From: Desulfatiglandales bacterium
GTDB lineage: Bacteria > Desulfobacterota > DSM-4660 > Desulfatiglandales > Desulfatiglandaceae
NCBI GenBank assembly: GCA_963662465.1
Contig: OY759599.1
Coordinates: forward strand, 224,001-288,000
DNA length: 64,000 bases
Direction: 5' to 3'
Numbering within the stretch: position 1 is the first letter of the stretch; every line of letters begins with the position of its first letter. The position numbers and the translations under genes were made by a program. Shown in pieces: positions 4,340-63,527 of the stretch. Below the pieces are notes generated by a model. That model was given only the letters and a program-made list of their open reading frames with translations. It was not told the origin of the DNA and made no database searches.

Positions 4340-5595
4340 GTCGAACAAGTATCAGAAATAAACTTATTCTCAGCTTCCTCATTTTACTCCTGCTGCTGAT
4401 GATGGTGGTGGCTGTCATTAACCGGCTGACCCATGACTTTTATACGGCACAGGCCATTTCCGTTGCACTGGCCCTGGCCGCGGGCGTCGTTTTCGGGAGC
4501 TTTTTTTCCAGATCCATCGTGCGCCGTTTGAACAGCTTGAGCAGCGTGGCCCGAGAGGTCAGCAGAGGTGATCTTTCAAAGGACATCCCCTTGCTGAGCC
4601 AAGATGAAATTCGGGATCTGGAAGAGGTCTTCGCGTCAATGGTTATTGATCTTCGAGAGATGATTTCGGATATTAAAAACGTTTCTGGTAAAATGGAGGA
4701 AACCAATAAAACGCTCAGTGCCCTGGCGAAAAAGGTTTTGGTCAGCAGTGAGGGCATTGATCAATCGGCCATGGCCATTGCCAAGGGGTCGGAACAGCAG
4801 ACCATGATTGTTCAGAAGACATCTCTGATCATTAACAACAGCCTCGACCAGATGGATGCGGCGGGTCGGCAGTCAGCCAAGACGGTATCGAAAATCAACA
4901 ATGCACTGGTGAAGACGGAAAGCGGCGAAACCAAAGCCCGGGAAACCCTGGGGTACCTTGAAAACGTTCTCAAACAGATGGTGGAAAATGCAAAACCCAT
5001 CTACCGGTTGAGCAACAAGGTGGAAAAGATCAGGATGGTCATGCATGTTATGGACGAAGTCGCTCAGAAAACGGATCTCCTTTCTCTGAATGCTTCCATC
5101 GAGGCCACCCGGGCCGGTGAAATGGGAAAAGGATTTGCACTGGTGGCCAATGAGATCCGGAACATGGCGGAAAACTCCAAGCAGTCTTCCCGGGAGATCA
5201 AACGGATCGTGGATGATATATTTCAGGACAACAAGGCAGTGATTGAGGCTCTCCGGAAGAGCGAAGAAGATATAGGGAAGGGGCGCGGCATCATTACCGG
5301 CATGGTCGGCACTTTTAAGGAGATGCTTTCAGGCGTTGCGGAAATCTCTTCCGAGGTCAAGGGGGTAGAAGACGTGACTCGACACCAGGTCAAGGAAATA
5401 CGCGGGTTGCTCGATCACTTTGAGGAGCTTTCACGGTTGGCCCAGGAAAATTTTGTGTCCACCCAGAAGACCACCGTGGGGACCCGAAGCCAGAAGGAGG
5501 GGATGAAGGAGATTGTAGAATTAATGCAGTCTTTGAATGCGCTTTCAGATAGGATGATGGCATCTCAGCGGCGTTTCAGGCTTCGTGGGGACTAG
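4336..5595 (+). CDS. Methyl-accepting chemotaxis protein (two TM helices, HAMP, no large sensor domain)
   Basis: Two N-terminal hydrophobic helices, HAMP, TDLLSLNASIEATRAGEMGKGFALVANEIR signalling hairpin. Confidence 0.92.
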   Translation: MSRTSIRNKLILSFLILLLLLMMVVAVINRLTHDFYTAQAISVALALAAGVVFGSFFSRSIVRRLNSLSSVAREVSRGDLSKDIPLLSQDEIRDLEEVFASMVIDLREMISDIKNVSGKMEETNKTLSALAKKVLVSSEGIDQSAMAIAKGSEQQTMIVQKTSLIINNSLDQMDAAGRQSAKTVSKINNALVKTESGETKARETLGYLENVLKQMVENAKPIYRLSNKVEKIRMVMHVMDEVAQKTDLLSLNASIEATRAGEMGKGFALVANEIRNMAENSKQSSREIKRIVDDIFQDNKAVIEALRKSEEDIGKGRGIITGMVGTFKEMLSGVAEISSEVKGVEDVTRHQVKEIRGLLDHFEELSRLAQENFVSTQKTTVGTRSQKEGMKEIVELMQSLNALSDRMMASQRRFRLRGD

Positions 5596-51129: not shown

Positions 51130-52213
51130 AACTGATAACCACATTCGAAATTTGATGGATGAAGTTCCACCCTCCGAAGCATATCCGATGTTCCATTATG
51201 TATTTGATGGAATAAAGGGATCAAAACAACTAAATACATTTCGTTCCTACGGCAACAATTTGTTGTGCGCACTGGATGGAACTTATTCCTTTTCTTCCGA
51301 AAAGATCCATTGCGAAAATTGTAGCAGCAAAGAACATAAAAACGGAACCATAACCTATTTTTACTCGGCAATCACACCCGTACTTGTCGCTCCAGGTCAG
51401 AAAAAGGTTATTTCATTGCCCCCCGAGTTTGTAACGCCTCAGGATGGATACCAAAAACAGGACTGTGAAAATGTTGCCGCGAAACGTTGGATAAAGCAGT
51501 ATGCACCATTATACAAAGACCTTGGTATTATCATTTTGGGCGACGATCTGTATTGTCGGCAACCCATATGCACGTTGATATTGGATAAGGGCCTCCACTT
51601 CATCCTCGTTTGCAAACCTAACTCGCACAAAATACTCTATGAATGGGTCGAAGAGCTCCAAGCAATGAATGCCGTCGAAACGGTCGTGGAAAAGATACGG
51701 AGAGGTAATACTCATCATATACATACATACCGTTTCGTAAATAAGGTCCCTTTGCGTGATGGCGAAAAGGCTTTGGAAGTTAACTGGTGTGAACTGACCA
51801 TTACTTCCGCTGCGGGTAAGCGCTTATATAAAAACGCGTTTACAACCGATTTCACCATATCAAAAGACAATGTGAAACAAATCGTCGCCGATGGTCGGGC
51901 GCGCTGGAAAATTGAAAATGAAAACAATAACGTATTAAAAACAAAATGTTATCATCTTGAACACAATTTTGGCCATGGCAAAAAACATCTATCAAATTTC
52001 TTATTGACGTTAAATCTTCTGGCTTTTCTCTTCCATACTGCGTTGGAAATGTTTGACGACGTTTATAGGCGGATTCGAGAAGATTTGCCAACTCGAAAAA
52101 CCTTCTTCCAAGACATTCGAGCTTTAACTCGGTATGTCTGCTTCAATAGCTGGGAGGCAATGCTGACGTTCATGGCCCGGGGCCTCGATCTAGATCTCCC
52201 AGATACAAGCTAA
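51130..52213 (+). pseudogene. ISNCY-like DDE transposase lacking its N-terminus
   Basis: TDNHIRNLMDEV, ALDGT, KQDCE, LGDDLY, GRARWKIENE, HLEHNFGHG; no proper start upstream. Confidence 0.85.
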
Positions 52214-52446: not shown

Positions 52447-53571
52447 TCAGCGCCTGTACGGATAACCGCCCCTTATGCCTTTTTTTGAAAACACAATTTG
52501 CCACAACTGATTCCTCCTTGACCTGAAACTGCCGGCGCATGAAAGAAGATAATAGGTCCACATACGATAAAACCGCTCATCATATGCATTTTTGAGTTTG
52601 ACCCAATTTTTTGTGAAATTGTGGTACCAGGCCATCAACGTTCTGTCATAGCATTGCCCGAAGCTATGCCAATCCTCGAGTACAAACAACCCTTCCGTTG
52701 CCGAGGTGATCTGTTTTGTGGACGGCAACATTGAATTCGGGAAAATATATTTATTAATCCAAGGGTCTGTTGAATTCGTGGAAGTGTTCCCCGCTATCGT
52801 GTGCAACAAAAAGAGGCCATTCTCTTTTAGACATCGATGGACAACTTCCATGAACGTCCTGTAGTTTTTTAATCCCACATGTTCAAACATGCCGATGGAA
52901 ACAATGCGATCGAATTTTTCCGTTAACGCCCTATAATCTTTCAGTTCGATTTTTATCTCAAGCCCTTGGCAGAAATTATTTACAAATTTCACCTGCTCCC
53001 GGGACACTGTTATGCCATGTACCCTAGCGCCATATTTTGCGGCTGCATATTTTGCAAAACCACCCCAGCCACACCCGATATCCAAAACCTTCATGCCCGA
53101 CTTTAATCCGATTTTTTGACAAATTAAGTCCAATTTAGCTTCCTGCGCTGTATCGAGCGTTTCGGCGTTTTTCCAGTAAGCACAAGAATAATTTAGCCCT
53201 TTATCCAGCATAATAGAAAAAAGATGATTACCGATGTCGTAATGCCGTTTGCCGACGATGTAGGCACTTGATCTGTTCTGAGTATTTATTACCTTTGCCT
53301 TCAGCATTATCCACAGCGATATTGCGGCATTTGTCTTTGATTTCTTGTCTAAGCGATTCTCCATGATTTTTTCAAAGAATTGATCAATGGCTTCACAATC
53401 CCACCAGCCATCCATGTAGCTTTCCCCCAGAGCAAGGGAACCTCCTGATAAAACCCTTCCGTAAAAATCGGGGTTGTGTATCCGGATATCCCAGGGTCTA
53501 TCCCCATTAATCTGAACATCAGAAGGGTTAAGCAATTTTTGAACAATCTTTTTCATTTTTGCCGCCTCCAT
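52447..53571 (-). CDS. cfa: Cyclopropane fatty acyl phospholipid synthase
   Basis: LGESYMDGWW, HYDIGN, YSCAYW, VLDIGCGWGG, SIGMFEHVG, KYIFPNSMLP, RMWTYYLLSC. Confidence 0.95.
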   Translation of the reverse strand: MEAAKMKKIVQKLLNPSDVQINGDRPWDIRIHNPDFYGRVLSGGSLALGESYMDGWWDCEAIDQFFEKIMENRLDKKSKTNAAISLWIMLKAKVINTQNRSSAYIVGKRHYDIGNHLFSIMLDKGLNYSCAYWKNAETLDTAQEAKLDLICQKIGLKSGMKVLDIGCGWGGFAKYAAAKYGARVHGITVSREQVKFVNNFCQGLEIKIELKDYRALTEKFDRIVSIGMFEHVGLKNYRTFMEVVHRCLKENGLFLLHTIAGNTSTNSTDPWINKYIFPNSMLPSTKQITSATEGLFVLEDWHSFGQCYDRTLMAWYHNFTKNWVKLKNAYDERFYRMWTYYLLSCAGSFRSRRNQLWQIVFSKKGIRGGYPYRR

Positions 53572-54145: not shown

Positions 54146-56045
54146 GATGCACTCGTAAAAAGTCAGGAAGCATTTAGGCCAAAATTATGATCATATACTC
54201 ATAATTATGAAGAAATATACCTGAACTTTTTTCAGCCGAGTTCGAAATAAGAAAAAATGCTCTTTGAAAACAAGAATAGCGTGAATTTGAGCAGAAGACC
54301 CTCCTCCCTGAGGTGTTTTAGCACTGTTCATAACCGTTTTGAGCGGCAGTTGCCCTGAAGAGGTTGATTGCTGTGGCTTTTAAGGTGGCACAAAACCGTA
54401 CTGCTTTAAGGCCCCTCACTCTAAGATGCTTAACTCCGGTTTTTCTGTCAAATTCAGACATGGCCGCTTCGACACCTGCACGCCACCGATAACGATCTTT
54501 GAATTCATCTGTTTGTTCATAAGATCTTCGTTTTGCCAATCGCATCTCTTTGGCCTTATAACGAAGGTAGTGGTTCTTTTTCCCTGTCTTTACCGGGCAC
54601 GTTTCCTGAAAAGGACACGCCATGCAGTGTTGAGAATCAAATATGGCGGTGTGCCTGGTTCCAGCTTTGTTTGTTTTGGTTTGGACCGGCGCATGACCTT
54701 CAGGACAGGCAAGAACAACGCCGTTTTCAGATGATTCAAAATCCGAAAGGTTCAGGTGATCTTCTTTCTTTATGGAACCCATAGTGGGGGCTAAAACCTG
54801 TACTCCCAGTGCCTCAGCTTTTTGACAATTCTCATCGCTGCCATAAAGGCTGTCCGCCAGGATTTCTTCGGGAGAGACATTGCGTTGTTTAGCAGATTCG
54901 ATAGCTGGTATCAGAGCATTTGCATCGCTTTCGTGAGAAGGCTCCACTTCGATGTGGGTAATCAAATTCAAACTGGTATCACTTTCACTATCTTTACTGT
55001 AGGTCTCCATGACCTGAACTTGATACCCTTGGCCTTTGTGACCACTATAGGTTGCATCGGGATCTGAAGGGTTTTGAAGAGAATTTGAGGGGATTTCCTT
55101 GGGTTTTTTCACTTCAACTTGTTTGCCGTCATCGGACACATTGCATTGTTCGTTCAAAACACGCTCAAGCAATTTGAAGCTATGCATGCTTTTGATTGCC
55201 GGGTGAAATTTGAATTGTCCAACCAAATCAAATAGATCTGAGCTTACAGAAGCAAGTGTTTTGGATGATTCTGAAGGTTTTACCATGGAAAAACATTGCA
55301 GAGATTTTTCAGAAAGATATTTGTCCCGGATGCTTGCATCTATTGCATCAAACAGCTCTTTGTGATTCCGCTTTAAATTGACCAGGAACTTATGGACAGT
55401 GGCGACAAAAATGCCAATTCTACCCAAACGCCGCATATTCGATTTGATATGAACAGAGTCAATCCTCTGGTTTTCGATATTGGAATTGAAAAGCAGTGCC
55501 GGTTTATTTGTAAAACGATCAAACACCATTGTATCCAGAGACTTTTCAGTAACGATCTGACGCATATTCCAGAAGGTTTTTGCACACATATACTTAGAGG
55601 CATCTGATTCATCAGTAATATTAAGAGCATAGTGCCACTGAATATTAAAAGCCAGCTGGTTTACGGTTTCATCGTCGGTGACGTCATGCGCTTGCTGGAG
55701 GAGTAGAACTCCAAGTACAGTGTAGAGTTCTTTTGTGGGGCGGCCAAAATCTTCTTTAAAAGAAGACGCTATTTCGTCAACGGGCAGTTCGCGGAGGAGT
55801 TCTTTTTGAAATAGCCCGGCCCACGATTGATCCAGCAAATCTCGACGTCTCGGGCTCAAAAAATGCCATGGGTCGAAAAGAACACCCTGATTTTGGTCTT
55901 TGATTCGAATCATACCGTGCACCTGAAGTTTGGTTGATGATATGACTCCTTACGTATCAAAATGTAAGGCAAAATGGAAGCGAAAAAGAGCTATATGCTA
56001 AAATATTTCAACAACTTAAATGAATTTGCTTTTTACGAGACCATC
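54146..56045 (-). mobile_element. Insertion sequence (IS1182/IS5-like)
   Basis: Inverted ends GATGCACTCGTAAAAAG (54146) and CTTTTTACGAGACCATC (ending 56045) enclose one transposase. Confidence 0.85.
54318..55913 (-). CDS. DDE transposase, apparently intact
   Basis: GRPT, QRIDSVH, SLQNPSDPDATY, LADSLYG, CxxC cluster, YRWRAGVEA. Confidence 0.9.
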   Translation of the reverse strand: MIRIKDQNQGVLFDPWHFLSPRRRDLLDQSWAGLFQKELLRELPVDEIASSFKEDFGRPTKELYTVLGVLLLQQAHDVTDDETVNQLAFNIQWHYALNITDESDASKYMCAKTFWNMRQIVTEKSLDTMVFDRFTNKPALLFNSNIENQRIDSVHIKSNMRRLGRIGIFVATVHKFLVNLKRNHKELFDAIDASIRDKYLSEKSLQCFSMVKPSESSKTLASVSSDLFDLVGQFKFHPAIKSMHSFKLLERVLNEQCNVSDDGKQVEVKKPKEIPSNSLQNPSDPDATYSGHKGQGYQVQVMETYSKDSESDTSLNLITHIEVEPSHESDANALIPAIESAKQRNVSPEEILADSLYGSDENCQKAEALGVQVLAPTMGSIKKEDHLNLSDFESSENGVVLACPEGHAPVQTKTNKAGTRHTAIFDSQHCMACPFQETCPVKTGKKNHYLRYKAKEMRLAKRRSYEQTDEFKDRYRWRAGVEAAMSEFDRKTGVKHLRVRGLKAVRFCATLKATAINLFRATAAQNGYEQC

Positions 56046-56722: not shown

Positions 56723-57742
56723 CTATAGACTGTCCAACCAGGCCATCAAATCCCCCTCATTTTCATAATGGAGTAATTCATCTATCTTGGAATCGTCCGT
56801 CAGGGCCGATTGCATGTGCCTCATGAACTGCCTTTGAATGTGGCGCCGTCGATCCAGGTCCAAATGCAGATAGATCGAAGTGGACTGGATGTTGTCATGC
56901 CCCAGATGATTCTTGATATCCGTGATGGGGTCACCGTTGTGGAGCATATCAACTGCTCGCGAGTGCCGGAATGAATGAACGGGATTGATATGTTTCAGAC
57001 GTTTTGGAGGGAGGGCCTTTTGGAGATATTTCCTGCAAATCCGGTAGATTCCATGGCGAGTGAATGACTCTCCCTTTTGATTGATAAAGAGCCGGTTTTC
57101 AAACATGGGCTTTGGGGATATCCGGTATTGTCGAATGTACAACTGAAGCAGGTCACAGGTTTTTGACTCAAGCTTTATGAGTCGAAACCGATTGCCCTTT
57201 CCCAGAATACTGAGGGTTTTCCGGTTGGGGTTAAAATAGTCGATATTCAACTCTGCAATTTCACTGGCCCTGGCTCCGGAATCGTAGAGCAGATGGAGCA
57301 CGGTGTAATCCCTGAACCCCTCTTTTCGTTTAAAATCAACCGCCTGAAACACCCGAAGTATTTCATCCTGGTAAAGAAATCCGATAAGACTCTTCTGCTC
57401 CCGTTTCTGGGGAATATTGAGGATAGCGGTTGCGGCATCCTGTTGATCCGGATGCATAAAGCGAATCATTTTGGCAAAGGATTTGAGTGCCGCAAGACGA
57501 TGATTCCGGGTTTTGGCCCCATTTTTCCTGTCACTTTGAAGATTTTCAAGGAACGAGACGAGAAGTTCCGTTTTAATATGTTCCACACGAAGCGATTTGA
57601 CCTTGATGTTGTAAAACGATGCCGCAAAGGGAAGAAAAATCCTGAAAGCATCCCGATAGGCCTTTATGGTCTGGTAACTGAGCCCCCTGATGGAAGTCAG
57701 GTATTGATCAAAGAACTGATGCACCAGGGGTGAAAGTTTCAT
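56723..57742 (-). CDS. Tyrosine recombinase, third gene of the outer RIT-like trio
   Basis: YDSGARASE, GKG, HSFRH, LGHDNIQSTSIY; ATGA overlap with the upstream gene stop. Confidence 0.93.
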   Translation of the reverse strand: MKLSPLVHQFFDQYLTSIRGLSYQTIKAYRDAFRIFLPFAASFYNIKVKSLRVEHIKTELLVSFLENLQSDRKNGAKTRNHRLAALKSFAKMIRFMHPDQQDAATAILNIPQKREQKSLIGFLYQDEILRVFQAVDFKRKEGFRDYTVLHLLYDSGARASEIAELNIDYFNPNRKTLSILGKGNRFRLIKLESKTCDLLQLYIRQYRISPKPMFENRLFINQKGESFTRHGIYRICRKYLQKALPPKRLKHINPVHSFRHSRAVDMLHNGDPITDIKNHLGHDNIQSTSIYLHLDLDRRRHIQRQFMRHMQSALTDDSKIDELLHYENEGDLMAWLDSL

Positions 57743-57931
57743 TTGTTTACTCTCTGCCAAAGACAAAAATCAACGAGATCTTTGCGATTCATGGCATCTG
57801 AAACCCGGAGATAAACACTGGTGCAAATGTAATCCGTGTGACCCAGATAGGCCGCCAGTATGGGTAAAGCGTTTTGGGCGGATTCACCTGATTTCCGGAT
57901 TCTGTTGAGGGTGTTCACGGCAAAAGAATGG
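57739..57931 (-). pseudogene. 3' part of the interrupted middle recombinase of the outer trio
   Basis: RHSFAVNTL..LPILAAYLGH..TSVYL continues exactly from ..TPHSLR at 61421. Confidence 0.93.
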
Positions 57932-57963
57932 CGCAGCAAATCCAAACGTTTGGATTTGCTGCG
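57932..57963. repeat. Perfect 32-bp palindrome at the left junction of the inner RIT
   Basis: CGCAGCAAATCCAAAC|GTTTGGATTTGCTGCG. Confidence 0.97.
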
Positions 57964-58097
57964 TTATCCAAACCTAAATAAAATCCAAACCTTTTCTTAA
58001 ATAACCTGATATTTAAGTATTTTTATCGGAAAAGGTTTGGATTTTATTGCATAACGTATGACCTTTTTATCAAACAAATGAACAGGAGGTCATACGA

Positions 58098-59336
58098 ATG
58101 AATGTACAAAATCTGCGGGATAATTATCCCAAACTCATTTCCTACATGGAAACCAACGGTTACTCAAAAACTTACGTTGACAGTTTTAAAAGGGAGATTA
58201 AAAAAACTCTGGCGTCTGAGGATTCAGAGGAATGGTCATGTTATAAAGATGTATATTTGGGATACACCAAAAAATCATATTCTCCTAACACTCTTCGCGA
58301 TAAACGGACTGTCATTGGAGCCATTGAGCAGTTTGATGTTCATGACAGATACCCGAATGGAAGGTGCAGGCATCAACTCTTCGAAAGGGGTTCTTATCCC
58401 TTGTTGTCACCGGAATTCAAATCCGTCATCGATCTTTACCATGAAGTTGAAAAGAAACGTGGCAAGAAAAAATCTGCTACCGTTTATACCGAATCCCATA
58501 ATGCATCCACATTTTTCTTATCCCTTCAGCAAAAAGGAATTAACGGCCTGGGAAAGACTACAGAAGAAGCCGTGCTTTCAATATTTATGTCCCCGGATGA
58601 AACCCTGCTCAAGAGCTGTTCTTACAAAAAAAACATTGCTGCGGTATTGAAGGCGTGTATCCCTTATCATCCAGAAACATGTCCTCAAATTTTAGCCTTC
58701 CTTCCCGCTTTAAGGGAAACTCGAAAAAATATTCAGTACCTTACATCGAAGGAAATCCAGAAAGTTAAGGGCGTACTGGCTGATGGTGAAAATCTTCTTA
58801 CGCTCCGTGACAAAGCAATTGGAATGCTTGCACTTTACACAGGCGTGCGTGGCTGTGATATTGCAGGATTGAAACTTGACGATATTGACTGGAACAGGGA
58901 TTTTATTGATATCAAACAGCAGAAAACAGCAATCCCTCTTGAACTTCCTTTAACAGCAGTTGTCGGAAATGCCATTTATGACTATCTGACGTCAGAGCGC
59001 CCACGCACAGAAAGCAGATATATTTTTGTTTCCCAGCTTAAACCATATGAACAACTGAAAAACAAAAGCATTGGCAACGTGGCAGCTCTGATCATGAAAG
59101 CAGCAGGTATCCGGCAGTTAAAAGGCGATCGGAAAGGATTTCATATCTTCCGCCATCACTTTGCCACAGAACTTTTGGGGAACGGAGTTCCTCAGCCTGT
59201 TATCAGCAGGACACTTGGTCACACTTCACCAGATTCTCTTGAATCATACCTAAGAGCAGATTTCCCGCATTTGAAGGAATGTGCCATCAGCATAGAAGGT
59301 GTTCCTGTACCAAAGGAGGTGTTTTACCATGAATAA
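58098..59336 (+). CDS. Tyrosine recombinase A of the inner RIT
   Basis: YTGVRGCD, QQKT, HIFRH, LGH..SLESY; SD AGGAGG. Confidence 0.93.
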   Translation: MNVQNLRDNYPKLISYMETNGYSKTYVDSFKREIKKTLASEDSEEWSCYKDVYLGYTKKSYSPNTLRDKRTVIGAIEQFDVHDRYPNGRCRHQLFERGSYPLLSPEFKSVIDLYHEVEKKRGKKKSATVYTESHNASTFFLSLQQKGINGLGKTTEEAVLSIFMSPDETLLKSCSYKKNIAAVLKACIPYHPETCPQILAFLPALRETRKNIQYLTSKEIQKVKGVLADGENLLTLRDKAIGMLALYTGVRGCDIAGLKLDDIDWNRDFIDIKQQKTAIPLELPLTAVVGNAIYDYLTSERPRTESRYIFVSQLKPYEQLKNKSIGNVAALIMKAAGIRQLKGDRKGFHIFRHHFATELLGNGVPQPVISRTLGHTSPDSLESYLRADFPHLKECAISIEGVPVPKEVFYHE

Positions 59337-60303
59337 ATTCACTTCTTTTCTTGCGCCGCTCATGCAGGCATATGTTTTCTATCAAAAAGCATCCGGACGT
59401 TGGAGTGAAGCTTCTTCTTATGGACCAAACCTCATCCTGTTTGACCGATACTGCAAGAAGCAACATCCGGAAGCTGCACTTCTATCTCAGGAAATGGTGA
59501 ATGGATGGTGCCATCAGCGCGACACAGAATCCAACAATTCGTGCAGATCAAGAATCAATGTTGTTGTAAGTTTTATACGATACTTGAGAAAGCGCGGAAA
59601 AACAGATGTCATGGAGCCTGAAATTCCAAGGAAAGAGCGATGCACATATATTCCCCATTCTTTTACAGGTGTTGAGCTGGAAAATTTTTTCCATGCTTGT
59701 GATAGCCTGCCTTCAGTATCCCACACTCCCGAACAGCGATCACGGAAAATAACTATTCCTGTGTTCTTCCGTTTTCTTTACAGTAGTGGAATACGAACTT
59801 ATGAGGCAAGAATGCTGAGGGTTAAGGACGTCGACTTGTGCAATGGGATTATGAATATCCGTTATTCCAAGGGGAGTGCTCAGCACTACGTAGTGCTACA
59901 TGACTCCATGAATAAACTTTTAAAAATATATGACGAAGCTATACGGAAGCAGTACCCTCACAGAACTTATTTTTTCCCTGCAAAAGGTAACACTTTCCAT
60001 AAAAGGAAATGGGTACAGACAAATTTTCGGGAATTGTGGGATAAATATAATAGCTCTCATGCTACTGCATATGAGCTCAGGCACCATTATGCCATAAAAA
60101 ACATCAACCGCTGGACAGATGAAGGCTTTGGGTTTGATGCGAAACTGCTCTATCTCAGCAAAAGCATGGGACACAGCACACTGGAAAGCACAAAATATTA
60201 TTATTCCCTTGTTCCCGGAATGGCTGACATCTTGGAAGAAAAAACAGGAATGGATTTCGAAAGCATTGTGCCGGAGGTGGATTATGAAGAAAGCGACGAA
60301 TGA
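59329..60303 (+). CDS. Tyrosine recombinase B of the inner RIT
   Basis: YSSGIRTYE, SKG, YELRH, MGHSTLESTKYY; SD AGGAGG, overlaps gene A. Confidence 0.93.
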   Translation: MNKFTSFLAPLMQAYVFYQKASGRWSEASSYGPNLILFDRYCKKQHPEAALLSQEMVNGWCHQRDTESNNSCRSRINVVVSFIRYLRKRGKTDVMEPEIPRKERCTYIPHSFTGVELENFFHACDSLPSVSHTPEQRSRKITIPVFFRFLYSSGIRTYEARMLRVKDVDLCNGIMNIRYSKGSAQHYVVLHDSMNKLLKIYDEAIRKQYPHRTYFFPAKGNTFHKRKWVQTNFRELWDKYNSSHATAYELRHHYAIKNINRWTDEGFGFDAKLLYLSKSMGHSTLESTKYYYSLVPGMADILEEKTGMDFESIVPEVDYEESDE

Positions 60304-61333
60304 GTCTGTTGTAATCGCACGCCATATCAATGCTTTTTTGAATGAATATGTTCCTTCCCAGAAAAGTCACAGCAGCCACACATTGAAATCCTATCAGTAT
60401 GCTCTGGCTTTATATATCGGTTTTTTGGAGGCCAAAAAAGGAATAAGTACAGAAAGCTTGTGTGGTGGATGTTTCAGAAGAATAATAATCGAGGAATGGC
60501 TGCAATGGCTGATAGAAGTGCGTTGTTGCAGGCCGGAAACCTGTAACAACCGGTTAGCATCCTTAAGAGCATTCCTAAAATACATGGCCAGTAGGGAAGT
60601 CCGCCTGCTGTACCTTTCCGAGGAGGCAACAAGAATTCCACGGAAAAAGGAAATACGCAAAAGAGTAAAAGGGATGAGCAAAAAAGCAGTACGGGTATTG
60701 TTATCGGTTCCGGATTTATCCAGAAAAACAGGGCGAAGGGATCTATCACTTATGATTGTCATATACAGCACTGCCGCCAGAATAGATGAAATACTGTCTT
60801 TAAAAACAGAACAACTTCATTTGGACGTGGAAAAGCCGAATATCACCATCATTGGAAAGGGAAGCAAAATAAGAACCCTGTATCTTCTACCTAAGGCTGT
60901 TGCACATTTAAAAAAATATCTGGGAGAATTTCATGGTGATACTCCAGATCCAGAAGCTTATGTTTTTTATTCAAGGAACACCGGATCACATGGGAAAATG
61001 AGTCAGACTGCAGTAAACAAGCAACTGAAAAAACATGCCAGAGCCGCCCATGAAATATGTGATGAGGTACCACGAGATCTTCATGCGCATCAACTGAGAC
61101 ATGCAAAGGCCTCCCACTGGCTGGAAGATGGCATGAATATCGTACAAATTTCATTTCTTTTAGGGCATGAGCAGTTACAGACAACGATGATATATATGGA
61201 CATTACCCTAGAGCAGGAATTGAAAGCCCTTGCAACACTTGAAGATGAAAACGACAAGAAGGTATCAAAGAAATGGAAAAATCAAAAAGATGGTCTGGCG
61301 GATTTCTGTGGCGTTAAGTCAATGAAGAAGTAA
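60284..61333 (+). CDS. Tyrosine recombinase C of the inner RIT
   Basis: YSTAARIDE, GKG, HQLRH, LGHEQLQTTMIY; SD GGAGG, overlaps gene B. Confidence 0.93.
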   Translation: MKKATNESVVIARHINAFLNEYVPSQKSHSSHTLKSYQYALALYIGFLEAKKGISTESLCGGCFRRIIIEEWLQWLIEVRCCRPETCNNRLASLRAFLKYMASREVRLLYLSEEATRIPRKKEIRKRVKGMSKKAVRVLLSVPDLSRKTGRRDLSLMIVIYSTAARIDEILSLKTEQLHLDVEKPNITIIGKGSKIRTLYLLPKAVAHLKKYLGEFHGDTPDPEAYVFYSRNTGSHGKMSQTAVNKQLKKHARAAHEICDEVPRDLHAHQLRHAKASHWLEDGMNIVQISFLLGHEQLQTTMIYMDITLEQELKALATLEDENDKKVSKKWKNQKDGLADFCGVKSMKK

Positions 61334-61420
61334 AAAATAAAATCCAAACTTTTTTGTATCGAATTCCTTAAATATCAGACATCTTTAAAAAAGGTTTGGA
61401 TTTTATTTAGGTTTGGATAA

Positions 61421-62205
61421 CGCAGCGAATGAGGTGTGGGTCCGTTGAAGTTCACATTGCCCAAAACTTTTCTGGGTTGCTTTAAGCCAGTGTCACTTAC
61501 CGCCTTATGAAACGCGGCCCTGACAGTAGTGTCACTCAAACTCCGCTCTTTTCTGCCGGCAAACAGAAAGGGATTCTTATCGTTTGGGCGAAGACTTTGG
61601 CGGACAGAGAGATAGTTTTCGATCTCTGCCACAACTTTTTTGGGAATCGGAATGATTCTGTCTTTGCCGAACTTGGTCCTTTCAATATAGAGGGTGGCAT
61701 CATCCCGGCGGTAGTTGCACCGCAAAAGTTTGATGGGTTCAGAGATCCTTGTTCCGCACCGGGCCATGACCAGCACCACCATATAAATAGCCAGGTCAGT
61801 CAAAAAACATCCGTTGGTCGTTCGAATGTTTTTGGAGACCGACTTCAACAGCAGGTCGATTTGATCGGGAGAGAAAACAAAGGGTACAACGACGTTTTTT
61901 TTAAGCCTCGGAACATCCTGTAAGGGATTATGGTCCACATAACCACGACCGGCAAGAAAATGGAAGAAGCCCCGAATCGAGGAAAAAATAGCGTTGATAC
62001 TCCGCGTTTCCTGGGTGAGTGCTGCTCTCATTTCAAGGAAAAAATCAGGCGTAAAAGAATGCCGGTCAGCTTCTGTTTTCCGAAGATAATCATCAAAAGT
62101 CAGAAGATGTGAGAGAACAGACCCCTTTTTATAGCCGAGACTTTTACGACGATACCGAAGGTAATCCTCCATCTCAGAGGCAAGAAAGCTTTTAAAGGGT
62201 CTCAT
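61421..62205 (-). pseudogene. 5' part of the interrupted middle recombinase of the outer trio
   Basis: FKSFLA..Y, CGTRISE, TKFGKDR, ends at TPHSLR; rejoined gene would be 325 aa. Confidence 0.93.
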
Positions 62206-63140: not shown

Positions 63141-63527
63141 TCAGATCTCCCTAATAGATTGCTGGATAAGGTTCTCTATTTTCAACCTTCCATGGTTTTG
63201 CCGGTGCTTTTTGGGGGCCGATTCTTTGGGTAAATCGAGTACCTGGAAAAGGCTTCCGTCAAATGCAATCAAATCCGTTTTTATCAGAGAGTCCCGGGCT
63301 TCAATGTATTCATCCACGGTGATTTTCAGAAACTTACAGATCCTGTCATAGGAGTAATAGGAAAGGCCGTTTCGATCGGAAGCCAAAACAAGAAAGAAGT
63401 ATAAAAGGATTTCCTGAGGCCTTAAAGCGTCCAGAAAACCATCCCGAAGGAACTTGTGAGGAATAAAACTGAAGCCGCCATTAATGCGTCTGACCCGATC
63501 CGGGTCCAGTATCTTTTTCTTGATCAT
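63141..63527 (-). CDS. Mobile-element-associated small helix-turn-helix-like protein
   Basis: GGFSFIPHKFL, LLYFFLVL, DRNGLSYYS, ARDSLIKTDLIAF; SD AAAGGAG; stop is 1 bp before the recombinase start. Confidence 0.7.
   Translation of the reverse strand: MIKKKILDPDRVRRINGGFSFIPHKFLRDGFLDALRPQEILLYFFLVLASDRNGLSYYSYDRICKFLKITVDEYIEARDSLIKTDLIAFDGSLFQVLDLPKESAPKKHRQNHGRLKIENLIQQSIREI

Follow-up and report, generated by a model that had tools for sequence, protein, structure and literature searches.

The window, a stretch of 64,000 nucleotides from a Desulfatiglandales bacterium (assembly GCA_963662465.1, contig OY759599.1), contains a RIT (three-recombinase) transposon inserted in the ritB gene of another RIT. 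The inner element and the interrupted outer trio are composed of the following features.

56723–57766, minus strand: third recombinase gene of the outer trio, 347 aa from TTG
57739–57931, minus strand: 3' part of the host ritB of the outer trio, which begins at the second His of H-S-L-R-H and runs to the stop
57932–57937, plus strand: He, outer hexamer at the P junction, predicted overlap of the crossover that joins P to the 3' half of the host gene
57938–57957, no strand: P, a 20-bp perfect palindrome of two back-to-back 10-bp arms, core ATCCAAAC
57958–57963, plus strand: Hi, internal hexamer (inverted), which with its two flanking arms (57948–57973) forms a putative second crossover site that is intact
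57964–58048, plus strand: core inverted repeat, ritA end, with arms at 57966 and 57983 and an inverted arm at 58035
58098–59336, plus strand: ritA, 412-aa tyrosine recombinase with catalytic R, HxxR, H and Y motifs
59329–60303, plus strand: ritB, 324-aa tyrosine recombinase with a YxLRH variant and the Tyr
60284–61333, plus strand: ritC, 349-aa tyrosine recombinase, third gene of the trio
61336–61420, minus strand: core inverted repeat, ritC end, its outermost 32 bp equal to the ritA end
61421–61426, plus strand: Hn, hexamer at the non-P junction, where decidable homologues keep the native target hexamer
61427–62205, minus strand: 5' part of the host ritB, up to the H-S codons
62192–63139, minus strand: first recombinase gene of the outer trio, 315 aa

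The ritA, ritB and ritC genes are adjacent and overlapping, all three products belong to PF00589, and each of them contains the R, [HY]xxRH and GH...Y motifs. Only these three recombinase reading frames lie between the core inverted repeats. The core (57964–61420), whose two ends are identical over their first 32 bp, has the size of about 3.5 kb and the terminal inverted repeats of about 28–34 bp that define RIT elements. Known RIT elements likewise carry three overlapping tyrosine recombinase genes in about 3.5 kb, are bounded by terminal inverted repeats and have conserved genes of other mobile elements as their targets (Van Houdt 2012, PMC3414803; Janssen 2010, PMC2864759). The best match of each window protein is the gene at the same position in the RIT trios of pHG1 and pMSHV, at only 22–34% identity, and the arm sequence differs from theirs. 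No Rit-specific model in Pfam or NCBIfam matched the window trio.

The insertion point lies within the H-S-L-R-H codons of the outer ritB, and in silico removal of the element restores a 325-aa reading frame through this motif. The outer trio showed neither an inverted repeat nor P at its ends. The junction layout that the earlier note had described around 57932–57973 and 61420–61426 was confirmed at every coordinate; Hn and He are the same hexamer here, and the 32-bp palindrome is exact. The lineage mostly targets the H-x-L-R-H codons of integrases, disabling the catalytic motif of these rivals. Its other targets, labelled from motifs, are presumably IstB, DUF4338-like, IS1595, IS66, HExxH protease and group II RT genes.

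P is conserved across phyla, and its arms are predicted to bind the recombinases. P followed by a hexamer and an arm occurs at three loci of the source genome (G000), one of which has a changed outer hexamer so that only the 20-bp palindrome is left, and other genomes and metagenomes contributed 162 de-duplicated ends with P. These loci rule out an assembly fold-back or a chance origin of the palindrome. Among 400 relatives of the same phylum, the P-plus-arm pattern was absent outside G000. In plasmid RIT regions, a site made of P, 6 bp and an arm lies at one end in 5 of 9, and it occurs once in 30 kb of pHG1. Many of the loci come from short-read assemblies, in which chimeric ends are possible, and relatives are not independent of each other. 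A copy elsewhere in the source genome (copy 3) has the same core as the window element apart from an IS and interrupts a different host gene. Such near-identical copies at different sites indicate that the element moves as a unit.

The two ends of the element are not equivalent. Of 159 P ends, 116 match the 3' half of an integrase motif and one matches the 5' half. Of 69 non-P ends, 50 match the 5' half and none the 3' half. Comparison of the ends shows that P faces a fixed half of the target. This fixes P as a part of the element that lies outside the inverted repeats and forms its true boundary, and the palindrome appears to give the RIT a second, complete crossover site. A 20-bp palindrome is already in print for the MIC elements of Bifidobacterium longum, which have three integrases and a 96-bp inverted repeat (Lee 2008, PMC2430713); the palindrome of the window also adjoins an inverted repeat of roughly 96 bp. 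However, the sequence of the MIC palindrome differs from P, and the available part of that paper gives no mechanism. Crossover points, the polarity rule and hexamer inheritance are absent from the RIT accounts (PMC3414803; PMC2864759), and the latter two were not found in the literature searched, a search that lay apart from Ricker 2013.

The core lies either way round relative to P. Cores flipped relative to P occur in L023 and L024 (0 differences in 3455 bp), in L048 and L118 (100% over 3439 bp), in L244 and L245 (100% over 3444 bp) and in a second RIT family of the source genome (100% over 3413 bp). The suggestion that the element could insert in either orientation is supported by these pairs. 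L118 differs from L048 by a flipped core and an exchange of Hi and He, as expected for the product of a circle opened at its second site; it is also reachable by longer routes without a second circle site. Flipping in place, as also proposed in the earlier note, is supported because a P with an asymmetric centre keeps its direction to the host while the core is reversed, both in L045 and L047, whose cores are 94% identical, and in the G000 copy at 7140 kb. In the G000 copy at 5170 kb, the face of the P centre is reversed. Lone P modules between two 3' halves of a target were seen at 2 of 19 P loci inspected. Together with the in-place flips, they support an active internal site, and the activity of the window site at 57948–57973 is thereby suggested by its homologous loci.

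The three hexamers often differ while looking target-like across the compared loci. Among the 37 coherent insertions, in which the two flanks together make up one gene, He, Hi and Hn are equal in only 7, and the two host-junction hexamers differ in 22, by up to 4 of 6 bases. L052, L081, L137, L170, L176, L162 and L063 were left out of these counts, either because their halves do not form one gene or because they are unreadable. L170 and L176 have a better frame with the P-side hexamer, but the other flank is not an integrase half. In all seven decidable cases (L033, L118, L035, L245 and three G000 copies), which were chosen after the fact while most mismatched pairs, including copy 3, are undecidable, the native target hexamer lies at the non-P end and the foreign one beside P. 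The P-side hexamer ends in AG in 8 of 68 cases or in 27 of 68, depending on the next base; because it usually agrees with the local frame in this way, it is not a random donor footprint. The 6-base spacers have the look of traces left by previous landing sites, not of a guide that selects the target.

We propose, with a probability of about 0.68, that the element is a RIT with three crossover points, a target read from its flanks, overlaps that need not match, a circle with two sites and an active internal site. Point X would join the host 3' half, He and P; Y would consist of P, Hi and the core and be a complete site with both arms; Z would join the core, Hn and the host 5' half. The recombinases would choose the target by its flanks and not by the spacer; the flank consensus, CAYGA-N6-NCAY, would be supplied by the H-x-L-R-H codons in integrase genes. 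The target hexamer would stay at Z and the hexamer brought by the donor would come to lie beside P, by analogy with SE elements and Tn554. Recombination of X with Z would join P to the far end of the core and yield a circle in which two sites stand head to head and each could serve for integration. Y would remain active in the integrated element: Y and Z would flip the core in place, and Y and a new target would separate P from the core, with deletions, inversions or DNA capture as the outcome. Repeated events at one hexamer may have homogenised this junction into the perfect 32-bp palindrome of the window.

SE elements and Tn554 keep the 6 bp of the target at one junction and those of the donor at the other (Idola 2023, PMC10214605). 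However, SE elements need four genes (IntA, Tfp, IntB and Srap), whereas the window element has three, and Tn554 has two recombinases (TnpA and TnpB) and a small TnpC, whereas the third gene of the window encodes a full 349-aa recombinase; the window element thus has the gene content of neither family. SE elements form a strand-biased copy-out circle and leave no empty site, and the available part of PMC10214605 describes neither a second intact site nor a reversible core.

The earlier note had proposed a circle with head-to-head identical sites; comparative data favour the head-to-head pair, identical spacers are not the rule, and the circle itself would follow from the layout. The exact circle-junction pattern had no match in metagenome contigs, which is weak evidence because assemblers handle long palindromes badly, and no circular joint was present in contigs from 4 of 24 listed runs compared with the region. 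In one X3 contig, the ritC end is joined to the P side on opposite strands, as in a flipped copy or a circle alike. A skip from 57930 to 61420 in X15 proved to be a related intact allele with 47 mismatches in 436 letters and not the empty site of this element.

An undescribed integrate-first pathway, in which the spare site attacks a target and then resolves, the core reverses with each hop and the last three hexamers form a shift register, is doubtful. Its strict form without a free circle, in which the resident Y recombines with a new target to form a cointegrate that X and Z resolve, so that the hexamers shift as current, previous and one before, is rather unlikely. Its predicted intermediates, lone P modules and cores with non-P junctions at both ends, exist, it yields the same product as L118, and it agrees with the missing circle. 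Such cores, which also speak for the main proposal, were seen at 9 of the 35 loci where both ends could be read, including one in a single-contig chromosome, versus 4 loci with P at both ends. However, this excess is small and could reflect assembly chimerism, same-orientation copies are common while every hop should flip the core, and exonuclease-resistant free RIT DNA has been reported (PMC5737581). The single-chromosome genome G402 has no lone P, all four of its P sites carrying cores, and exact P is absent from 7 of 9 genomes with both-ends-non-P cores, which are incomplete. If integration came first, the spare site would let RITs drive targeted deletion and the capture of DNA at catalytic codons in the integrases of other elements.

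Tn916-type elements use coupling sequences, one attachment site per circle and one integrase with Xis. In a Tn916-like model, the element would be cut out on both strands and pasted in, heteroduplex overlaps would be resolved with no bias between the strands, and the two-site junction would otherwise be the same. This model would account for all five hexamer patterns, and the empty allele L087 could be its excision footprint. It predicts foreign hexamers at either junction, whereas those of the decidable cases all lie beside P, and we consider it improbable. GInts behave in this way, with 6-nt staggered cuts, mismatch-tolerant overlaps and junction drift towards the target, but have one attachment site per circle and four genes plus cargo (PMC5385486). 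The present element would share these cuts, overlaps and drift with GInts and with Tn916-type coupling sequences.

The strong reading of the earlier note, that the spacer programs the target through Cre/lox-like homology, is very improbable. Matching is far above chance: Hi equals He at 38 of 162 ends (2.5 expected), Hn equals He in 15 of 37 (1.2 expected), and a matching Hi is present in the lineages that sit in non-integrase targets. Added homology gave tenfold more integration in GInts (PMC5385486). Given the excess of matches, there may be a weak homology bias towards matching hexamers. However, spacers that must match are contradicted by the mismatched junctions, and a spacer that sets the target by copy 3, which has three different hexamers and a core identical apart from the IS; these are the spacer-target mismatches that the note itself held to be fatal. 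He varies among homologues: 82 different values occur next to conserved flanks, He differs in 4 of 9 pairs with identical 3' flanks, and in 11 of 136 cases it removes the catalytic Arg codon. A comparison of Hn with He position by position revealed no clear requirement for homology (position 5: 6 observed, 10.3 expected, p ~0.05 uncorrected). For copy 3, the relatives in 80 family genomes reach no more than 81% identity and leave its native hexamer undecided, and its outer hexamer occurs in no intact G000 integrase gene among those matching the motif used. The element is not a programmable DNA-guided system.

That P is a hairpin or telomere-resolution site producing covalently closed linear intermediates is scarcely credible: P is a perfect palindrome without a spacer and hairpin intermediates have been proposed for RITs (PMC5737581), but sequence exchange is in every case located at the outer edges of P, whose centre is not symmetric in several lineages.

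RITs are widespread. A 2023 paper reports that no laboratory had yet reproduced their transposition and counts target specificity and the mode of movement among the untested points (PMC10214605). The three proposed crossover points, the target consensus and the putative inheritance rule of the 6-bp overlap are now fixed, which makes the mechanism of RIT movement testable. Because P is located beyond the inverted repeats, a mini-RIT made only of the repeats may be missing something that it needs. The failure to map RIT circles would be understandable if their junction is a long palindrome. Deletions next to MICs, such as the one of 10–50 kb that arose in culture beside MIC III (PMC2430713), would be accounted for by a spare site that is active.

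The window's RIT transposon (57932..61426) is a real RIT element. Re-reading of its junctions at 57932-57973 and 61411-61426 confirmed the sequences described in the earlier note, including an exact 32-bp palindrome. A 20-bp palindrome (P) is separated from the host gene by one hexamer (He) and from the core (57964-61420) by another (Hi), and a third hexamer (Hn) lies at the other junction. The inverted repeats of the core are about 95 bp long and 83% identical, with the outer 32 bp identical between the two ends. They enclose three overlapping PF00589 genes (ritA, ritB and ritC), and catalytic motifs were found in each. The element interrupts the second gene of a surrounding (outer) recombinase trio within its H-S-L-R-H codons, and in silico removal of the element gives a frame of 325 aa. 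Because neither an inverted repeat nor P was found at the ends of this outer trio, the trio may be of another kind.

Three copies of the element are present in its own genome (G000). Copy 2 is truncated and 96.5% identical; its host flank is also 97% identical, so it may not have arisen by a separate insertion. Its ritA gene is broken by an RT-like ORF region, followed by the truncation (contig C1, 2868-2870 kb). The core of copy 3 equals that of the window except for an IS (a 2.3-kb insertion breaking ritB, C1 7047.3-7049.5 kb), and its host gene is a diverged one, interrupted at the same codons. Copy 3 retains Hi, but its He and Hn are changed and differ from each other. Therefore the palindrome is not an assembly fold-back, and spacer and target can differ. 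A genome-wide scan of G000 also revealed an unrelated family of 20-28 bp palindromes with the centre GGCATGCC in about 30 copies.

Homologues were collected with an alignment of 30 ritB sequences, 29 drawn from the 120 matches listed. Of 171 genome loci confirmed with it, the best 80 were taken irrespective of P. A P-plus-arm pattern search added at least 124 metagenome stretches, 80 of them with full flanks, and 2 viral stretches, a set that is by construction P-selected. De-duplication of these loci and the pattern matches listed left 162 ends with P, 69 without it and 44 pairs with both ends. Both ends could be read in 35 genome loci (from the best 80 of 171); of these, 22 carry one P, 9 none and 4 two; the single P is at the ritA end in 8 and at the ritC end in 14. 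Among the matches listed, P ends (n = 159) abut the 3' half of the integrase H-x-L-R-H motif in 116 cases and the 5' half in 1, and non-P ends (n = 69) abut the 5' half in 50 and the 3' half in none, where relatives are non-independent and short-read assemblies may fuse ends of different copies. The remaining ends mostly lie in other genes. Thus, the polarity of P relative to the target halves is nearly absolute. The flank consensus is CAYGA-N6-NCAY. Because a Priestia target fits this consensus while encoding another motif, the target appears to be read out through its DNA flanks. In three loci with P at both ends (L014, L056, L160), the hexamer outside P at one end recurs inside P at the opposite end, as expected for one circle opened at each of two sites; these may also be chimeric assemblies. 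Five viral contigs (L284, L285, L287, L288, L290) carry P-like palindromes with neither a core arm nor clear integrase halves, which may have arisen by chance or represent lone P modules at targets of another kind.

The anatomy of P and its hexamers is general to the family. It recurs with other arm sequences in two more G000 families:
C1 about 1582-1586, 2491-2495, 4393-4402 and 7140-7144 kb, partial at 5170 kb: second, unrelated RIT family (L295, L296)
C1 292.5, 3215.9, 3338.5, 3346.6, 3350.3, 4989.4 and 6842.5 kb: seven gene-less mini-RITs
C1 2365.6 kb: truncated mini-RIT end
The second family, whose host gene is presumably an IS66-like transposase, keeps the anatomy in both core orientations. 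The mini-RITs are about 320 bp long, have their own P and lie at P-Q-G-G codons of RT-like genes. In both families P is on the 5' side of the host gene, and therefore polarity is a property of the site, not of transcription. Among nine plasmid RIT regions, P anatomy is seen in five, two lack P at both ends and two are uncalled; the RIT plasmid pHG1 shows it once, against a shuffled background of 0.04 sites per locus.

The native hexamer is found at the non-P end in 7/7 decidable cases, which were chosen after the fact with a one-base case (3346.6 kb) left uncounted. In L033, Hn is present in the empty allele L089, and sister copies share their hexamer with both He and Hi; the common hexamer also stands in L087, another empty allele, which is possibly an excision footprint. 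He creates a stop codon in L118 and changes Arg to Ser in L035. In L245, He and Hi match the hexamer of the copy on a sister plasmid, as inferred via a paralogous target. The direction was decided against an empty site at 7133.6 kb for the second-family copy at 1585.6 kb, with near-identical empty alleles for the mini-RIT at 3338.5 kb, and with a related allele only for that at 3215.9 kb. The same inheritance rule for 6 bp is described for SE and Tn554 elements in PMC10214605. The bias may stem from exchange of single strands followed by replication, or from biased repair.

Hi equals He at 38/162 P ends among the matches listed (shuffled mean 2.5). Hexamer patterns were scored on the 37 pairs in which both flanks belong to a single gene, 7/44 being excluded because their halves are not one gene or are unreadable (L052, L081, L137, L170, L176, L162, L063). 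All three hexamers are equal in 7, Hn equals He in 8, Hi equals He in 5, Hn equals Hi in 5, and all differ in 12. In 22/37 pairs Hn and He are mismatched at 1 to 4 bases, He differs despite identical 3' flanks in 4/9 pairs, and He abolishes the catalytic Arg in 11/136 integrase-type ends. Hexamer equality is therefore enriched but not required, and programming of the target by the spacer is not supported by these comparative data. He tends to suit the local frame (8/68 versus 27/68, p = 0.0003). This speaks against a purely random donor footprint and means that one allele is often re-used or that homology is preferred to some degree.

The proposal that the circle carries two sites, allowing insertion in either orientation or a flip of the core, gains comparative support. 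Several observations indicate that the internal site is in use. In four genomes, identical cores are found facing either way with respect to P. In G402, (Hn, Hi, He) is (T, X, T) in three copies, all with P next to the ritC end; in another copy, whose core is reversed, it is (T, T, X). The latter order is what a two-site circle opened at its second site yields; longer routes can also produce it, a single in-place inversion cannot. With an asymmetric P centre as orientation marker, P presents the same face to the host and the core is reversed in L045/L047 and in G000 at 7140 kb; this requires in-place inversion. In the 5170 kb copy the P face is reversed (1 mismatch versus 3), which requires use of the second site. 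A lone P between two 3' target halves is found in 2/19 P loci inspected; such modules with two integrase 3' halves are L291 (G484:C16:29000-48500) and L292. In L291, 5.7 kb of other genes separates the lone P from a core without P at either end. In L049, on a single-contig chromosome, the core is flanked by two 5' halves, as would be expected from deletion through the internal site (P, Hi and core arm).

Palindromes and both orientations are reportedly mentioned in Ricker 2013 and its author's thesis, and so the polarity rule may partly be in print. The RIT palindrome itself is in Lee 2008 (PMC2430713), which also describes a deletion beside the Bifidobacterium longum integrase cassette MIC III that arose in culture, and a palindromic sequence is mentioned in Van Houdt 2012 (PMC3414803). 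Neither the hexamer inheritance rule nor internal-site activity for RITs was found in the literature searched, namely the accessible portions of PMC3414803, PMC10214605, PMC5737581, PMC2430713, PMC5412050, PMC8138268, PMC5385486, PMC2864759 and PMC10322971. No circle junction was found in metagenome contigs by exact pattern, nor a circular joint over the region in contigs of 4 runs. If its hexamers were equal, such a junction would form a long, perfect palindrome in which no 31-mer is unique. This may be why RIT circles could not be closed by paired reads in PMC5737581. These rules make the unsolved mechanism of RIT transposition precisely testable.

Directly upstream of the outer trio lies a 128-aa HTH_36 gene (63141-63527, minus strand). 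At C1:3490.7 kb a 64% homologue lies ahead of the intact trio, and a 60% homologue is present elsewhere in about 27 copies; a second unrelated palindrome family of G000 (20 bp, about 27 copies) lies near multi-copy HTH_36 genes. Two DDE transposase genes (51152-52213 and 54318-55922) stand beside the nested trios, and between them is an ORF (52447-53571) that we take to be methyltransferase-like.
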